From contig CAWCPV010000004.1 in the NCBI GenBank assembly GCA_963797555.1, positions 448,001 through 512,000 of the forward strand: DNA of 64,000 nt, given 5' to 3'. Below the pieces are notes generated by a model. The model was not told where the DNA came from and made no database searches. It saw only the letters and a program-made list of their open reading frames with translations. Of the stretch, positions 14,229-20,898 are shown in pieces. Both the position numbers and the translations under genes were made by a program. Each line of letters starts with the position of its first letter. Position 1 is the stretch's first letter. Origin of the DNA: an uncultured Gammaproteobacteria bacterium. Its GTDB lineage: Bacteria > Pseudomonadota > Gammaproteobacteria > CAWCPV01.

Positions 14229-14329
14229 GATGGCCGACTGGCAAGCCGGGACGTGCAACGTGGCCTGGAAGTCCGCGACGAGATCCGTAAGGCGGAACCC
14301 CTATTTTCTTTATAAATGGAGTCTGACCC

Positions 14330-15833
14330 TAATGGCACTTACTTAACCTTTTTCGGATGTCCGTTCTCGCGGATTTCTTCCCGTACGAGCTGTCTTGGCT
14401 TGCAGAGCAGCGGAAACGGTTTGGGTCGGCGTTGACCGCTCTTGGCTCGACGCGCCGGGGGCGTTTCCCGACCCGCTGCTCGGCGATCATCACGAGTAAG
14501 GCAGACAGAGTGACGGGGTCCTGCGCCCCGCCACGTTGCTGCCACACTGTCCAGATCTGGACGGTATGCTTGAAGCTGAGCTGGCGCGGGGTCTGATCGG
14601 CCAGCCAGGCGGCCTGGGCCATCAGCAACCGGATCAGATTGTAGGCCAGCAGATGAACCCAGACCTCTTTGATCGCCATCTCCGGGGTCTTGCAGCTCAG
14701 CATCTCCATGCCGAGCGTGGTCTTGATGTGGCGTAAGTCCAGCTCCACGTGCCAGCGCCGGCGATACAGCGTCTTGAGGGCGGGCTTCGGAGTGTGCCTG
14801 GGGCAGCAGAGCGTGGTGACCAGGGTCTTGCCGCCGGTGTGCAGCTCGCGCACCTGCAAGGTTTCGGGGGCTTGCGCGTAGTCGGCCTGGCGCATCCAGT
14901 CGGGCTTCTTGGGCCTGTGCAGCACGATGAGGTGGTCGCGCTCGCCGAGCTTCTCGCCCACAGAGAAGTCGATGCTGCGTCGCCGTGCCCCGTACTGTTC
15001 GAATACTCCGTCCACGCCCCGTTGCACCAGCTCGGAGAGCAGGAAATAGGTCGCGTAGAAGGCATCCCCCAAGAGGATGTCACCGGGGCGCAGGGTATCG
15101 AGCTGGGAGCGCAGCAGAGTCTGTTCATCGCTTCCCTTGCCTTGGCACGGGCCCGTGGCCACATCGAGCAACCCGCCACTGCCCAGGCACAGCAAAGCGA
15201 CCAGGCGGCACTGGGGAAAACCCAGGCCCGCCTTCTGGCTGGCCGGTTGCGGATAGGCCGCTTGATTCTCCGGTGTATCCGGCAGCACCACCGTCGCCCC
15301 ATCGACCAGACGCACCGGGCGACCCTGCCAGTGCCACATCGCCGGGGCACCCTCGGCGATCAGCCGCCCGGTGTGGCGGCACAGCCGCGTGACCATCTGA
15401 AGCGGCAGGCGCTGTCGTGCCTTGCAGTACGCCCCGGTGTGGGTACTGCATCGCGGCAGGCCGCCCACCAGGCGCTTGACCGCCGCATCATTCACCGCTT
15501 GCTGGCAGGAGCGGTCCGCCGAGAGCGTCTGCGCAAGAAACATCGACAGCGTCTCGGTGGGTGCAAACAGCCGCTCACGGTGCTCCGGCAGCAGCGACTC
15601 GACTTGCTCGAACAAGCGCGGGCCGGTGAGCAGGTTGAAAAACGCGTAGGAATCCGTGTTGGCAGCCTGATGACGAACCCGTCGCTGTTGCTGAACGCAG
15701 GCGCAGTGGCTAGGATGCATGAGGGCTGGCTCCCTGGGTGATGGACGTTGTGTTTGGCGACTCAACAGCCTATCACCTACGCCAGCCCTTCTGCATGCAA
15801 ATTCAGTCAGTTGCGCTTAAGTAAGTGCCATTC
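14330..15833 (-). mobile_element. IS4-family insertion sequence with 16-bp IRs and 11-bp target duplication
   Basis: IR AATGGCACTTACTTAA at 14331-14346 and its complement at 15817-15832; DR GAGTCTGACCC at 14319-14329 and 15834-15844. Confidence 0.9.
14339..15765 (-). CDS. IS4-family DDE transposase, frameshift near C-terminus
   Basis: VDGATV, LGDAFY, YRRRWHVELDLRHIK (YREK) motifs; expected tail KRRPKPFPLL...HPKKVK lies in another frame and ends inside the IR. Confidence 0.9.
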
Positions 15834-15974
15834 GAGTCTGACCCCATTCGGTCTGCCAACAGGCTCGGTCTGCCCAAACGCGCCAAATAGGGGGAAAACC
15901 GGGGAAAACCCCTCCTGGGGCCAAGCCCATAGTACATTTAATGCGCCCATAAATTTATTTGATCGACAACGCCG

Positions 15975-16319
15975 GTGCGAGAGACACACAATTCTCTGAT
16001 CATCGGGAATTATTTGTCTTCAGTGATTCTGTGTCGTTCTGTATTGGAGTATTGCTTGGCACAACAAGGACGAAAACATGGCATTAACGTTTTCCGGGTG
16101 AGTGGAGAGCTAAAGAAGCTGGGGGAGCTGGTCAATGAATATTCCGAAAGATTCGCTGAGCAGGAGGTTGATCTCAGGGGGATCAAGCGTCTTGGTGATG
16201 ACAGCGTTCATGTCAACGTGTACCAGAACAATGTCATTTCTTGGCCCAAGGTCGGCTTTGGCCATGCATTCAAGTCATGGGATGCTTTGAGGAAGTTGTT
16301 GGAGTGGCTGTATGGGTGA
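15975..16319 (+). CDS. DUF4145/HEPN-like domain protein, probably N-terminally truncated
   Basis: SSVILCRSVLE...IKRLGDDSVH pattern; visibly lower GC; no convincing start or RBS. Confidence 0.45.
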   Translation: MRETHNSLIIGNYLSSVILCRSVLEYCLAQQGRKHGINVFRVSGELKKLGELVNEYSERFAEQEVDLRGIKRLGDDSVHVNVYQNNVISWPKVGFGHAFKSWDALRKLLEWLYG

Positions 16320-16451
16320 CATTCGCAGCGGGCGAGCCCGGCAAGTGAAATCAACGTCAGAGGGTAGGTGGCGTGTGCGTGGGGGAGGCGTAGGTGCTTG
16401 ACTGGTGGCTGCTGGGTTGGAGGCTTGAGCGTACACGCCTACATGGCGGAG

Positions 16452-16844
16452 TTAGGTTTGGCTGGCAGCATTGAGAATGCCTTCAAGACGCTCTTTCAAC
16501 AACTGAGGGCCGTTGGCAGGCAGACAGTACATTACACACCAGTCTGGGCATTCCTCGTCGCCGCCGTGGTAAGCCTGCCATGCCTTGTTGAAGCGCAAGC
16601 GGTCAATGTTGCGGAGGTAACGCCGAAACTCGACTGCGGCGGCGCGATGCCTGGGAAAGACTTGAATTAAGGCAGCGTGCAGTTGGTGGCCCCGAAGGTC
16701 GCCGAAAACGGAAGGGTCGATGGCAGCGCGAAAGGTGGCGGCTGCGGCGCGCTTGGTGTTGAGGCGGTGAACGTACAGCAAAGCCAAGATGCCAAGAAAC
16801 CCAGTCAGCAGCGTAGCGGCCCAAGTGGGGATGAGGTCGTTCAT
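16452..16844 (-). CDS. Hypothetical protein with N-terminal TM helix in an integron-cassette-like context
   Basis: 130-aa ORF whose TAA lies within ACCTAAC; upstream GTTAGATTTGG is complementary to that end. Confidence 0.6.
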   Translation of the reverse strand: MNDLIPTWAATLLTGFLGILALLYVHRLNTKRAAAATFRAAIDPSVFGDLRGHQLHAALIQVFPRHRAAAVEFRRYLRNIDRLRFNKAWQAYHGGDEECPDWCVMYCLPANGPQLLKERLEGILNAASQT

Positions 16845-16923
16845 TTTGATTGGTGGGCGCTACTTGGGGCTATGGTGCCGATTTGGCTATTTGTTGCGGA
16901 CGGGATGTTGGCTCGAACCAAAT

Positions 16924-17406
16924 CTAACAGGAAATGGCGGGCCGGTACAACGCTGCCGACGGCTCAGACGGTGTACGAGCCTCGTTAGAGGGCACAAGGC
17001 AAGACCTGACCCGGGCTCTCCGACTACAGCGCTGGACCGCTTCCGCGCTGTCGTCAGGCCGGGAGTTGAAGCAGATCCTGGCTTGCGGCGCGTGTTCGTG
17101 GACGATGTTGATCAGCTTCTCGAAGAGCAGGAAGTTCTTGGGGATTGCTCTCACCCCGGCCCCGATCAGGACACAGTCGTAGCGATTCTGCTTCAACCGA
17201 TCCGTAACGGTGGCTGCCGCGGATACGGGATCGGTATCAGTGAGGCATAGCTCCGCCTCGAATCCGAGCGCGTTGAGCTTGGCCACATCCTGATCCAATC
17301 CCTCCTGCAACTTTTTCGCACCCAGATGGGCGATGTAAGCGTTGGCCGGGTCGGAAAAGTCGATTTTGGTGGGATCCATTCCCACGATGACAACCTTCTT
17401 CGTCAT
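16924..17406 (-). CDS. Conserved hypothetical protein, copy 1 (native stop lost, read-through tail)
   Basis: MTKKVVIVGMDP...DCVLIGAGVR...FEKLINIVHEHAP; AAGGAG RBS; near-identical to 17929-18315. Confidence 0.7.
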   Translation of the reverse strand: MTKKVVIVGMDPTKIDFSDPANAYIAHLGAKKLQEGLDQDVAKLNALGFEAELCLTDTDPVSAAATVTDRLKQNRYDCVLIGAGVRAIPKNFLLFEKLINIVHEHAPQARICFNSRPDDSAEAVQRCSRRARVRSCLVPSNEARTPSEPSAALYRPAISC

Positions 17407-17898
17407 AAGCACTCTCCTTTGGTGGCCTGAGACCGCGACATCGCAAGCGGTCTCCGCTCGCTTAACATTATGAGTAGACCGTGCCCTGGCCGCCGGACCC
17501 TCCGGTTCGTTTCCGAGCGAGCGATGTGCTTGGACGAACAGGCGGTTGCCTGACACCGGAGCACTGAGGAGGCTTGGCACAGTGGGCATCCCTTCCGGGG
17601 ATAGGTGGACATCGTCCGTCTATCCTCGCACGGGTCCGCGGCGAGTTCGTTCCGCTCAAGACGCGGCTCCCCCGCGGCCAGATGTCCTCGACCGCGCCTG
17701 GGTCCTCTGCGATGGCCCCCCATGTGCCTCCCGGTGGTCTGGTCCGCCACCTTTTTGCCGCCTCCCTCTGGGCGGACCGGCTTGCCCGTCCAACCTGCCG
17801 GAGGGAACGCCTTGCACTTTATAGCGAGAGTCTGACGAGCGCGCACCGGGCTATCAAGCCGGGCGGGAGGAGAGCGGGGTCAGGTCTTGCCTTGTGCC
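16991..17898. repeat. ~29-bp inverted REP-like repeats (GGGTCAGGTCTTGCCTTGTGCC core) bracketing a duplicated segment
   Basis: 16991-17020 is the near-perfect reverse complement of 17870-17898. Confidence 0.85.
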
Positions 17899-18771
17899 TT
17901 CGTTCTGGCCCTGGTCCCTTTCCCTCTATTAAATCCAACGCTGGACCGCTTCCGCGCTGTCGTCAGGCCGGGAGTTGAAGCAGATCCTGGCTTGCGGCGC
18001 GTGTTCGTGGACGATGTTGATCAGCTTCTCGAAGAGCAGGAAGTTCTTGGGGATTGATCTCACCCCGGCCCCGATCAGAACACAGTCGTAGCGATTCTGG
18101 TTCAACCGATCCGTAACGGTGGCTGCCGCGGATACGGGATCGGGATCAGTGAGGCATAGCTCCGCCTCGAATCCGAGCGCGTTGAGCTTGGCTACATCCT
18201 GATCCAATCCCTCCTGCAACTTTTTCGCACCCAGATGGGCGATGTAAGCGTTGCCCGGGTCGGAAAAGTCGATTTTGGTGGGATCCATTCCCACGATGAC
18301 AACCTTCTTCGTCATAAGCACTCTCCTTTGGTGGTCTGAGACCGCGACATCGCAAGCGGTCTCCGCTCGCCTACCATTATGAGTAGACCGTGTCCTGGCC
18401 GCCGGACCCTCCGGTTCGCTTCGGACCGAGTGATGCGGCGGGACGAACACGCGCTCGCCTGACACCGGAGTACTGAGGAGGCCGGGCACAGCAGGGCATC
18501 CCTTCCGGAGATAGGTGGACATCGTCCGTCTATCCCCGCACGCGTCCGCGGCGAGTTCGTTCCGCTCAAGACGCGGCTCCCCCGCAGCCTGATGTCCTCG
18601 ACCGCGCCTGATCCTCTGCGATGGCCTCCCATGTGCCTCCCGGTGGTCTGGTCCGCCACCTTTTTGCCGCCTCCCTCTGGGCGGACCGGCTTGCCTGTGC
18701 GACCCTCGGAGGGAACGCCTTGCACTCCAGCGAGAGTCTGACGAGCGCGAGACGGGCTGTCAAGCCGGGCG
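17027..18771. repeat. Direct duplication of ~840 bp (17027-17865 vs 17936-18771)
   Basis: High nucleotide similarity over the gene plus ~450 bp of upstream DNA, with scattered substitutions. Confidence 0.92.
17929..18315 (-). CDS. Conserved hypothetical protein, copy 2 (intact, 128 aa)
   Basis: AAGGAG RBS; ends ...SAEAVQRWI*. Confidence 0.8.
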   Translation of the reverse strand: MTKKVVIVGMDPTKIDFSDPGNAYIAHLGAKKLQEGLDQDVAKLNALGFEAELCLTDPDPVSAAATVTDRLNQNRYDCVLIGAGVRSIPKNFLLFEKLINIVHEHAPQARICFNSRPDDSAEAVQRWI

Positions 18772-19165
18772 CGCGGTTTGCGGGCCCGACCGGATGGCCC
18801 GGGCCCCCGGGGATCGGCGAGTGCACCGCGCCAGCAACGGCGCGCGGCGGCCGAGCAGGGCGCCGACGCGGGTCACGCCGGTAAAGCACATGGCGTCGTC
18901 GGCGCCCAGCCGTTGCGTAAGGGCCAGGCCGCTACTGCGGCGGGCCGGTCGGGTCCCTTGTGCGCCGCCGAGGACGCGCAGCCTCGCGGGGGGTCGTCGG
19001 CGAGCACTGTCTGAGCCCGGCGCCCCGCCGGGCGAGTTGCGCAGCCGCCCCGTGGGGCGAGCACCGCAGGGCACCCGCAGGGCGGCGCACAGGGTGGCCT
19101 TCTCTTTGGTGACTTTCTCTTGGCCAAACAAGAGAAAGTCACCAGCCGCCGGGCTGCCCCCGGGC
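18772..19165. repeat. GC-rich MITE-like intergenic element with a long hairpin
   Basis: GGTGACTTTCTCTTG-N6-CAAGAGAAAGTCACC at 19108-19143; resembles widespread proteobacterial intergenic repeats; no credible ORF. Confidence 0.65.
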
Positions 19166-19277
19166 ATGCCTGCGACCGCGCCGCAGGTCGAGCCTCGCCG
19201 AGTCCCCCTGCAAAGCCGGGGGGGGTTGCCACGCCGTGCGGACTCGGCCCGAGCCTTGGACGCTGTCTAGTGGACGC

Positions 19278-19306
19278 TTGACCACAGTGGCCGCCTTTGC
19301 TAGAGT
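19278..19306 (+). promoter_or_regulatory. Sigma70-type promoter TTGACC-N17-TAGAGT
   Basis: Optimal spacing, ~80 bp upstream of the SnoaL-like gene. Confidence 0.5.
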
Positions 19307-19386
19307 CGCTCGCGGAGAGTTGGGCGTTACACCGTTCTTAATCCGGGCAACCGACAACTTCAGTGATTGGAGGAAGGCAAGCCACC

Positions 19387-19770
19387 ATGAGAGAGGATCT
19401 TATCAAGCGCTGTGAGGAGCTTTTTCGATATCTTTCCGCAGGAGATTGGGAGCACGGACTTGCCCTTATTGCACCGGATCTACGCTACACCGTAGCCGAC
19501 GAGAAACCTATGATAGGACCCGAATCGGTCAAGGAGTATCTGACCGAGCTTTCCAAGGCCCTCAGGCCTCTCGAGCACAATGTCCGCAATGCCTGGCAGG
19601 TCGATGACAACACGGTAGTCATGGAAGGTGTGACAGTTTGGGGTCGTCCCGACGGCAGTCAATTCTCGACGCCCTTCTGCGACATTTATGGCTTCGAGAA
19701 TGGGCTTCTCAAGGACTGGCGCGTTTATGTCGTGGGGGGCGGAACTGTCAGCCGCCCGGAAGGGCACTGA
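19387..19770 (+). CDS. SnoaL-like / NTF2-family protein
   Basis: 127 aa with ...TVVMEG...PFCDIYGFENGLLKDWRVY; GGAGG RBS upstream. Confidence 0.75.
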   Translation: MREDLIKRCEELFRYLSAGDWEHGLALIAPDLRYTVADEKPMIGPESVKEYLTELSKALRPLEHNVRNAWQVDDNTVVMEGVTVWGRPDGSQFSTPFCDIYGFENGLLKDWRVYVVGGGTVSRPEGH

Positions 19771-20065
19771 TCGGTCATTTTTCCTTCCCGAGAATTGCCT
19801 TCTTGAAGGCCGCTCGACCGCTTCTTTCGTATCGAAGATCGTTCGGAAGGAGGTGGCGGCGGCTGAGCACTTGTGAAAATCCGTGGAGGGATTCATCCCG
19901 CCCAGATAGGATGATCCGGCCCCACCGGGGCCCGAGTGTCCTGCGCTGCATCCGGAATGTGGTCGGGGCGCAGCGCTGAGTCAGTCACCGGCTCCTCCAC
20001 GCACGAGCCGCTGCCGCTCCCTGTGTTTCGCAGCCCAGTTCCGAGCCTGCCATCGGCCAGCGCCG

Positions 20066-20443
20066 TCATCGAGCCAGCTCCCATCCCAGGTAGACGACCA
20101 AGAAAATCGCCATGGCCGCGACTGCCGTTCCCAGGGCGAGGTTGGGCAGGGTCGCTCGGTACTGCGCGATCTCCTCCGAGTCGATCCGCCGCTCGTGGGC
20201 GAGAAAGCGCCGGGTGGCCAGAGTCACCATGAGCACCGCGAACAGGAGCAGGCCGATGCCCGCGATCTCCGCTGCCGGCGAGGCATGGACGTGCGCCTCG
20301 CCGCCCTGCGCGTGGAAAAGATAGGCGAGGAAGAGGTCGAACCTCTCGATCAGGAACCCTAGCGCCATCAGGGCGATCGCGGTCCGGATCCAGGCGAGGT
20401 AGGTGCGCTCGTTGGCGGCGTGGTCGGTGAAATGCGGGATCAC
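20066..20443 (-). CDS. DUF202 (YidH-like) membrane protein
   Basis: ANERTYLAWIRTA motif, three TM helices. Confidence 0.88.
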   Translation of the reverse strand: MIPHFTDHAANERTYLAWIRTAIALMALGFLIERFDLFLAYLFHAQGGEAHVHASPAAEIAGIGLLLFAVLMVTLATRRFLAHERRIDSEEIAQYRATLPNLALGTAVAAMAIFLVVYLGWELAR

Positions 20444-20898
20444 GGCTTGCCCTTGCGGGCCTTGGGGATAGTGAGCACCGGCACGTGGGACAGGCGCACG
20501 GTGGTCTCGGTCACGCTGCCGATCATGAGACGGTCCAGTCCCCGTCGGCCGTGGGTGCCGATCACGATGAGGTCGGCAGGCCAGAGGGAGGCTGCCTGGT
20601 CGATGGCCTCGCCGATATGCCGCCCCGCGGTCTCCAGCAGGACCCCATCGGCCTCGACGCCCGCCTGCGGGGCCAGGGTGCGCGCGTCGTCGAGCAGGTT
20701 CTGGCCAGTCGTGTGGACCGACTCGCGGATCTTCTCGATACCGATCCAGCCATGGATGTCCCAGTCGCCCAGGGTTTCATCCACCACGTAAACGAAGCGC
20801 AGGCGGGCAGCTTGCTCTGCGGCGAGCGCAATGGCGTGGCGGCATGCAGCCTGTGCGGTATCGCTACCATCGATGGGAGCCAGTATGCGCGCGTACAT
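20440..20898 (-). CDS. Universal stress protein
   Basis: ILAPIDGS...DLIVIGTHGRRG...GSVTE. Confidence 0.92.
   Translation of the reverse strand: MYARILAPIDGSDTAQAACRHAIALAAEQAARLRFVYVVDETLGDWDIHGWIGIEKIRESVHTTGQNLLDDARTLAPQAGVEADGVLLETAGRHIGEAIDQAASLWPADLIVIGTHGRRGLDRLMIGSVTETTVRLSHVPVLTIPKARKGKP

Follow-up and report, generated by a model that had tools for sequence, protein, structure and literature searches.

The TIRtron/TIRYT elements were named by Di Nocera, De Gregorio & Rocco in 2013, and their terminal inverted repeats (TIRs) share the sequence GGGGWSAS (PMC3733652). According to Quentin et al. (2018), TIRYT transposases constitute subclass 2.1 of TnpA-REP and have helix-turn-helix (HTH) or DnaA-like tails (PMC6006769). 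Published TIR families occur also as single copies, dimers, and groups (PMC3733652); the elements are widespread and, as far as the available text of the published accounts goes, known only from sequence (PMC3733652, PMC6006769). REPs, or repetitive extragenic palindromic sequences, are individually palindromic and abundant, and in REP doublets forming hairpins (REPINs) the arms are separated by some tens of bases, or 71 bp for the GI class (PMC3116915). Here, we describe a gene duplication with TIR-like inverted arms in a 64,000-nucleotide stretch of DNA from an uncultured gammaproteobacterium. The whole stretch, C4:448001–512000, is referred to as the window; it belongs to an assembly of 5.35 Mb in 20 contigs with 64.6% GC and 84.6% completeness. 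The best explanation of the locus is a real, fairly old (about 6% diverged) local rearrangement, and not a mobile element.

The original prediction described an ~840-bp duplication of a gene with its leader, in which the first copy is bracketed by inverted repeats, and interpreted it as a REPIN carrying the gene as cargo. The duplication is real: copy 1 (17027–17865, 839 bp) and copy 2 (17936–18771, 836 bp) are 94.2% identical over 840 columns (BLAST). They are directly repeated on the minus strand with 70 bp (17866–17935) between them and have diverged by substitutions, as had been noted; the BLAST alignment contains 44 mismatches and 4 gap openings. A global alignment has 49 differing columns, 42 of them in the 459-nt non-coding part and seven in the 378-nt coding part, and four of the seven coding differences alter the protein. 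The parts of the locus are as follows.

16988–17021, no strand: left arm (IR-L), an inverted copy of a 7–9-nt flank and a 25–26-nt TIR, identified by repeat search and BLAST.
17006–17012, no strand: tip of IR-L (reverse complement of GGGTCAG), which points right, to copy 1.
17022–17026, no strand: junction filler GACTA, 5 nt, without homology to the arm or to the source copy (alignment with flanks).
17027–17865, minus strand: copy 1, a partial and derived transcription unit (BLAST, open reading frames, global alignment).
17027–17406, minus strand: truncated gene of copy 1, the 160-aa reading frame of which extends to 16924.
17407–17865, minus strand: leader of copy 1, 459 nt, which starts 8 nt upstream of the TTGATA/TTGACA box.
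17466–17871, minus strand: member of the dispersed leader module in copy 1 (family search).
17829–17857, minus strand: copy 1 equivalent of the candidate promoter (family alignment).
17866–17868, no strand: GGA, the 3 nt that separate copy 1 from IR-R and are filler or else native flank; GGG in a relative.
17869–17901, no strand: right arm (IR-R), the 7-nt flank GGAGAGC and a solo TIRYT-type TIR starting GGGGTCAGG at 17876.
17876, no strand: tip of IR-R, which points left, to copy 1.
17929–18315, minus strand: intact 128-aa gene of copy 2 (list of open reading frames).
18316–18771, minus strand: duplicated part of the leader of copy 2, with the right breakpoint of the source at 18771/18772.
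18385–19031, minus strand: full member of the ~650-nt dispersed repeat module (family search), composed of the upstream half and the leader, with the duplication breakpoint inside.
18735–18763, minus strand: candidate promoter of copy 2, with TTGACA at 18758–18763, a 17-nt spacer, and CAGACT at 18735–18740.

Copy 2 is intact and copy 1 lacks the last codons and the stop, as originally reported. The open reading frame (ORF) of copy 2 (18315–17929 with the stop) encodes 128 aa and ends in AVQRWI followed by the stop codon. The product of copy 1 runs to AVQRC, without the final two codons and the stop, and reads through the left arm to 16924; the 160-aa ORF is also called by the public annotation. 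The DNA upstream of the gene inside the duplicated unit comprises 456–459 nt. No matching arm stands at the far end of copy 2, again in agreement with the first description: the 14-mer GGGTCAGGTCTTGC occurs at only two places in the window when up to two mismatches are allowed. The 70 bp between the copies, composed of arm, spacer, and gene end, are the natural downstream region of copy 2. This sequence is found neither to the left of copy 1 nor to the right of copy 2, where 34 nt of it occur inverted instead. A simple tandem duplication was rejected, because the locus does not have a single novel head-to-tail junction and carries the inverted 34 nt in place of the 70-bp spacer. The inserted block is 881 bp long, the sum of 34, 5, 839, and 3 nt. 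Apart from 8 junction bases, the block is a copy of the adjoining 0.9 kb, one piece of it direct and the other inverted. The insertion point of the block, 17868/17869, is at the same time the start of the piece that was copied inverted. Copy 1, and with it the 881-bp block, ends 10 nt outside the GGGG tip of the TIR in the right arm.

The inverted arms at 16988–17012 and 17877–17901 are 25 nt long and match at 24 of 25 positions (96%). With one indel, they extend to 16988–17021 and 17869–17901, 34 nt with 91% identity (31/34 positions, BLAST), and the extended pairing takes in 7 nt on the far side of the TIR tips. With 864 nt between them, the arms bracket copy 1 as closely as had been claimed, with the 5 nt GACTA and the 3 nt GGA separating it from the extended arms. 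GGGGTCAG occupies 17876–17883 in IR-R; IR-L has GGGTCAG, one G fewer. A 22-mer from the arm is present at three places in the 5.35-Mb genome at up to three mismatches, the two arms and one weak match, so the bracketing is not the coincidence of an abundant repeat that the first description had allowed for. The arms are each other's nearest relatives: other genomic copies differ from the 25-mer core by at least three mismatches, and the arms read GTGC where the other copies of the family have GTAG.

The right arm is native to the region downstream of the gene, because a relative in sequencing run X3 keeps the GGAGAGC flank, the TIR, the spacer, and the intact gene end. In the contig of this relative (record 10), the sequence to the left of the TIR flank is different, starting at precisely the position of the copy 1 junction. 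What the two arms have in common is limited to 34 nt, made up of the 7–9 nt outside the tip and the TIR. An interpretation of IR-L as a native TIR with a flank of the family type was rejected: the alignment scores of its outer flank were 2–7, equaled by shuffles, versus 12–25 within the family.

By their sequence relationships, the arms are solo or orphan copies of TIRYT-type terminal inverted repeats and not REPs. They belong to a small dispersed family of the approximate form GGGGTCAGGTC-N4-CTTGTRNC, the loose pattern of which has 13 matches in the genome versus none for the reversed control; GGGTCAGGTC occurs 47 times versus 21.7 expected from base composition. In species-representative genomes, the family motif is present exactly at 85 loci from many phyla, versus a chance expectation of ~35 that was estimated by hand from 17.5 specified bases and 596 Gb. 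Two full motifs in plus/minus order are found at 13 of the 80 listed loci. With the 11-nt tip as the pattern, plus/minus pairs occur at 26 of the 85 loci, each of which holds 200 nt of flank, and minus/plus pairs at none. The doublets in other genomes form ~93-nt hairpins with GGGG at their outer ends (−34.7 kcal/mol, z −9.6). At locus L011 of the class-level relative G018, 26-nt inverted repeats that begin with GGGGTCAGGTCTTGTCTTTTGCC (629–654 and 1507–1532, tips outward) enclose a gene for a 284-aa protein, with 852 nt between the arms. By our own count, these repeats match the window TIR at 22 of 26 positions, and BLAST aligns the right arm with the TIR of this TIRtron at 91% over 33 nt. 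The 284-aa protein matches Y1_Tnp with 54.9 bits (cut-off 23) and the NCBIfam model 'REP-associated tyrosine transposase' with 81.8 bits (cut-off 80), and it has a weak C-terminal match to HTH_23.

The original identification of the arms as REPs is not supported. A REP is by itself a small stem-loop that bears a GTAG or CGTC tag. Neither of the arms folds (−3.6 and −1.3 kcal/mol; shuffled sequences do equally well, z 0.4 and 1.4), they have ~13 related copies in the genome, and the classical REP-associated tyrosine transposase (RAYT) loci, at C3:823644 and near C7:204 kb, are flanked by a different, unrelated 39-nt REP. A cognate RAYT carrying the same repeat as the arms was not found in the genome, in which the RAYTs carry the 39-nt REP and 237-aa RAYT-like genes are flanked by GGGGTCAGACACGAT. 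The genome has 30 Y1_Tnp matches, and TIRYT-like genes are located at C17:145829, with the related end GGGGTCAAGTCTTGC, and at C17:141968. In a doublet-rich Pirellulaceae genome, the GGGGTCAGGTC tip lies within 1.5 kb of none of the ten best Y1_Tnp loci.

The reading of the locus as a REPIN with cargo fails on the orientation and distance of the arms, on the breakpoints, and on the want of a second case. The GGGG tips face inward to copy 1 in the window, and outward in the L011 TIRtron and in 26 of 26 doublets. The four breakpoints of the duplication have no common cleavage motif in the alignment. A genome-wide scan, in which inverted 16-mer seeds 150–4000 bp apart were read by hand, found no other pair built from the arm motif; the other inverted pairs of the genome are insertion sequence (IS) ends, RAYT-flanking REPs, and inverted gene copies. 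There are 23 inverted GGGGTCAG pairs within 4 kb, the arms of which match at no more than 20 of 34 positions, versus 31 of 34 at the window locus. Since the tips face inward, the breakpoints are free of a motif, and the genome holds no second case, transposase-driven capture is unproven; the part of the proposed transposase link that stands is that the arms, as TIRYT ends, are tied to HUH tyrosine transposases. A transposon or miniature inverted-repeat transposable element with cargo was rejected, given the inward tips and the lack of a target-site duplication, no direct repeat being seen by eye to abut the arms. The ORFs and Pfam matches between the arms include no transposase gene, only the copy of the 128-aa gene with its leader. 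An integron cassette was rejected too: the arms are 864 nt apart and therefore not one attC, the boundaries have no GTTRRRY core by eye, and no integron integrase is encoded nearby.

Copy 1 is the derived copy, from an intact copy like copy 2, because its W127 is gone, its module is cut, and the 70 bp between the copies are the natural downstream region of copy 2. This direction had been proposed originally, and it agrees with the structure of the two copies: each end of copy 1 is truncated, and copy 2 runs on into the gene end and the full module. Both W127, which copy 1 lacks, and R126 are invariant in 33 aligned homologues. Copy 1 also lacks the upstream half of the ~650-nt module and begins at position 263 of the 678-position model, whereas the full module is continuous in copy 2 (18385–19031), at C4:573890–574556, and at C16:30272–30943. 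When leader changes are polarized with the two other full modules, copy 2 has 13 derived changes and copy 1 has 20; of the latter, seven are in flank columns outside the duplicated block, which leaves ~13, like copy 2. With the 97%-identical metagenome proteins P0001 and P0122 as an outgroup, G21, N72, and S87 are derived in copy 2 and T58 in copy 1. The arms differ at 3 of 34 positions, similar to the 42 of 459 at which the leaders differ. Because of this similarity, the divergence pattern fits an origin of the arms and the copies at about one time.

With somewhat less than even confidence, we favor break-induced, serial template-switching repair at the flank of the TIR tip as the process that may have made both the duplication and the inverted arm. 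The locus would have started as the 128-aa gene with its promoter-leader module, followed by one solo TIR of a TIRYT-type transposase. After a break or a stalled fork at the TIR-tip flank, a 3' end would have re-copied the neighboring unit from the sister or from the same duplex. The copying end would then have switched strand for 34 nt, in a fold-back, and rejoined the left side. This reading is favored because the insertion point coincides with the start of the inverted piece, as is expected of one DNA end used twice. It is possible that a transposase nick triggered the repair event, and the suggestion that the initial break was such a nick is speculative.

Several observations weigh against template switching at the TIR flank. 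The process requires three template switches, and the junctions have no microhomology. The case is single in the genome, and no empty site or intermediate was recovered: the duplicated unit is unmatched in the 40 nearest genomes, all of them class-level relatives, and a metagenome scan for relatives yielded only identities of 62% or below. The share of the sampled words found in any one sequencing run is at most 0.15, and the listed runs with such words include no RNA. Contigs from the runs cover parts of both copies, and none of them bridges the junctions or the arms; as the junctions are spanned by no read or contig, the order of events is derived from one sequence. The left-hand sequence of the relative in X3 is the end of another repeat, which has three copies in the window's genome, and therefore does not show the ancestral left side. 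Moreover, the intact copy 2 has three derived residues versus one in the truncated copy 1, and simple decay of copy 1 would predict otherwise.

The arms are explained equally well by the main rival, which we consider unlikely, in which two TIRs stood tip-to-tip downstream of the gene as a pre-existing palindrome with 34-nt arms and a short center. The center would have been broken by hairpin or cruciform cleavage or by fork stalling, and a copy of the neighboring unit inserted there. The arms pair 7 nt past the TIR tips, as the center of a true palindrome would, and copy 1 is within 3–5 nt of the inner ends of both arms. Such sequences are described as fragile sites in the available text of two accounts (PMC7999016, PMC3855049), and the genome encodes Ku, so that capture by end joining is conceivable. 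However, none of the 26 inverted pairs at the 85 loci of other genomes, which hold only 200 nt of flank, has its tips inward, and neither does any GGGGTCAG pair within 1 kb in the window's genome. The palindrome must also be no older than the duplication, because the divergence of the arms is similar to that of the leaders. In a two-step version, a 909-bp tandem duplication ending at the center would have been followed by deletion of one arm, the spacer, and the gene end, which requires a second precise event.

It is improbable that an HUH tyrosine transposase (RAYT or TIRYT) acted on both repeats and inserted the gene segment as cargo. The arms are TIRYT-type element ends, TIRYT-like genes are among the 30 Y1_Tnp matches of the genome, and short duplications concentrate at the tips; furthermore, IS200/IS605 enzymes cleave a circle junction to which a tip-to-tip junction in a chromosome is similar. 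Nevertheless, the arms are oriented opposite to those of every doublet and TIRtron examined, and the source copy has no TIR at 18771. The four breakpoints share no motif, and no second example is found among the inverted pairs of the genome. The published accounts of TIRYT, as far as their available text extends, give no activity assay and no cargo capture (PMC3733652, PMC6006769).

An assembly artifact, either two strain variants placed in tandem or a chimeric contig, is unlikely, and we regard it as very improbable. The assembly is incomplete (84.6%) and in 20 contigs, no contig from the sequencing runs bridges a junction, and related strains occur together in the marsh runs X3 and X4. A tandem collapse of haplotypes would, however, repeat the left flank directly and would not invert 34 nt and drop the gene end. 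Contigs from the runs of one study, which may be those of the source sample, are 100% identical to 17462–17612, specific to copy 1, and to 18194–18536 and 18596–18805, specific to copy 2. In addition, the products of both copies are called as genes on one 846-kb contig.

Hardly credible is an invertible switch, in which the arms are recombination sites and the segment between them flips to regulate the neighbors: 25–34-nt inverted repeats do flank a candidate-promoter segment, but the segment is a decaying copy of its neighbor, the ORFs of 14.5–21.5 kb include an IS4-type DDE transposase only and no invertase or tyrosine recombinase, and no strand-changing joint was reported, the arms having zero read cover.

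TIR tips are prone to duplication in this genome, as is evident from counts of short tandem repeats at the tips versus control words. Direct GGGGTCAG pairs 9–60 nt apart number 11 at seven loci; five control 8-mers, chosen at a frequency similar to that of GGGGTCAG, have 0, 0, 0, 1, and 0. These short tandem 'stutters' of flank and GGGGTCAG tip adjoin TIR or RAYT-type ends on their outer side and are located in the window's genome at C17:145711, C3:76066, C3:414642, C3:548977, C3:823062, and C8:79434. Judged by eye, about four of the seven loci (C17:145711, C3:76066, C8:79434, and C3:414642) have a repeated unit that starts 9–10 nt outside the GGGG tip, and the unit at C3:823062 lacks this offset.

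The stutters invite the idea, which we hold to be doubtful, that TIRYT transposases nick ~10 nt outside the GGGG tip, orphan ends included, and that local re-replication repeatedly arises from the resulting break or primed 3' end. The one observation behind the nick as a trigger is the 10-nt offset common to the end of copy 1 and the tip stutters. As a sign that a TIRYT nick seeded the event, the shared offset of ~10 nt is suggestive, and no more. If the idea is correct, the usual outcome would be tandem stutters of 13–32 nt at the tip and, occasionally, a kilobase-scale duplication of the adjoining gene. Orphan transposase ends would then be a built-in generator of gene duplications, and TIRYT activity would have its first sequence-level footprint. 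A gene-sized duplication that ends at the stutter offset is a testable hint at the cut site of the enzyme and at destabilization of the surroundings by orphan ends. Taken alone, the locus is the scar of a one-off rearrangement, located where a metagenome-assembled genome is accessory and rich in repeats, and it shows no new mobile-element mechanism.

The 128-aa protein is conserved and uncharacterized. Of 1899 candidates, 1879 are related to it at E ≤ 0.001, and it has no Pfam or NCBIfam family match. Its model is a small alpha/beta fold with a predicted local distance difference test score of 93.4, and the structural matches are generic (best Foldseek E 1.5e-4, template modeling score ≤ 0.61). 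The leader is a member of a dispersed family of ~12 modules, 400–650 nt long, positioned upstream of unrelated accessory genes. Apart from the two in the window, the family search identified the following members.

C4:573890–574556, C16:30272–30943, C7:292999–293378, C4:640430–640659, and C9:210569–210980: module members elsewhere in the genome.
C14:58064–58272, C3:410929–411088, C7:469791–469961, C8:44103, and C8:45412: further module members elsewhere in the genome.

The genes after the modules encode the 128-aa protein, two proteins of 201–205 aa, a 355-aa protein, a Hydrolase_2 protein, and a GmrSD_N protein; one module is followed by a tyrosine recombinase gene and then an IS91-type transposase gene. 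A TTGACA-like box is exact in 9 of 12 members, with a variable CAGACT-like hexamer ~17 nt on. The modules have a strongly conserved 37-nt core, GGTGGCGGACCAGACCACCGGGAGGCACATGGGAGGC, and carry a 27-nt near-palindrome, GGATAGACGGACRATGTCCGCCTATCC; in some members, a second box, GGGATAGGCGGACAATGTCCGTGTTTAAACACGGACAACGTCCG, directly precedes the gene. A promoter scan did not call TTGACA-N17-CAGACT, because the second hexamer matches at only three of six positions. Rfam gave no matches at E ≤ 1 in 15500–20500, and RNAalifold on nine leader members (−21.5 kcal/mol, covariation term +1.84) gave no covariation support; the fold has only two local hairpins that are conserved in sequence. The core pattern has no exact match in species-representative genomes. 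Possibly, the module is a regulatory region with an operator, shared among these genes and specific to the lineage. Because the right breakpoint of the duplication is 8 nt upstream of the TTGACA box, copy 1 holds the whole candidate transcription unit, and it places a second candidate promoter upstream of the next gene (16844–16452, 130 aa). The protein of copy 1 is without the invariant C-terminal Trp.

On the opposite strand, the module core forms a small hairpin followed by TTTTT, which resembles a terminator, at 17733–17751 and 18642–18660 (plus strand). At L008 (C4:572800–574556), a full module is directly before the tyrosine recombinase gene and the IS91-family (Y2) transposase gene, and the truncated module at C7:469791–469961 adjoins DNA that has 86% identity with the L008 element at its far end. 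In the L101 region (C14:55800–59700), a direct duplication of ~1.2 kb, 92.8% identical and with a 2.4-kb period, flanks a leader member and repeats the end of an amine-oxidase-like gene. It was rejected as a parallel case, as there are no TIRs at its ends.

The surroundings of the locus contain further repeats. At 19107–19144 of the window, two perfectly matched 16-bp arms form an inverted repeat around a 6-nt loop; the stretch around it is 92% identical to C2:130342–130553 and 70–90% identical to short stretches in three class-level relatives. A 38-nt repeat has a solo copy at 19185–19222, with the hairpin region reaching ~19245, and ~25 copies in the genome at 84–87% identity. Several of these are ~80–120 nt upstream of Y1_Tnp genes for 125–175-aa proteins, for example C3:26176–26213 beside C3:26296 and C7:229360–229396 beside C7:229513. 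The 38-nt repeat probably constitutes the left terminus of an IS200/IS605-type element. On the other side of the duplication, the IS4-family DDE transposase gene occupies 14329–15765 (Pfam DDE_Tnp_1), and a further GGGGTCAG-headed sequence at ~15838 (minus strand) recurs beside RAYT-like genes on C3.

Four described systems resemble the locus in part. In the REP-mediated tandem duplication reportedly described by Shyamala et al. in 1990, which arises by unequal recombination, a repeat element is said to be at the join point, as here. Unequal recombination requires a direct repeat at each end of the unit and results in three direct copies, whereas the repeats in the window are inverted and the far end of copy 2 has none.

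The likeness to TIRtron/TIRYT elements is in the arms, which start with GGGGTCAG and fit the published GGGGWSAS (PMC3733652, PMC6006769). In L011, and not in the window, a Y1 transposase with a C-terminal HTH stands between repeats of the same type, the tips of which point outward. By contrast, the window arms have no transposase gene between them, their tips point inward, and the DNA they enclose is a copy of the neighboring gene. With REPINs and RAYTs, the locus shares inverted copies of a short repeat tied to the HUH tyrosine transposase family (Bertels & Rainey 2011, PMC3116915), and the window motif forms ~93-nt hairpin doublets in other genomes. Unlike those of REPINs, the arms in the window are unfolded, belong to a family of ~13 copies, are 864 nt apart, and face the opposite way.

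Template-switch and break-induced duplications are described as a direct duplication combined with a short inverted one (Slack et al. 2006, PMC1428787; PMC10766183), and this combination is also found here. The window differs from them in being a single natural case in the assembly of an uncultured bacterium, with a breakpoint at the end-repeat of a transposase. In both, the inserted sequence is templated nearby, and the junctions contain few untemplated bases, according to the available text of these accounts (PMC1428787, PMC10766183).

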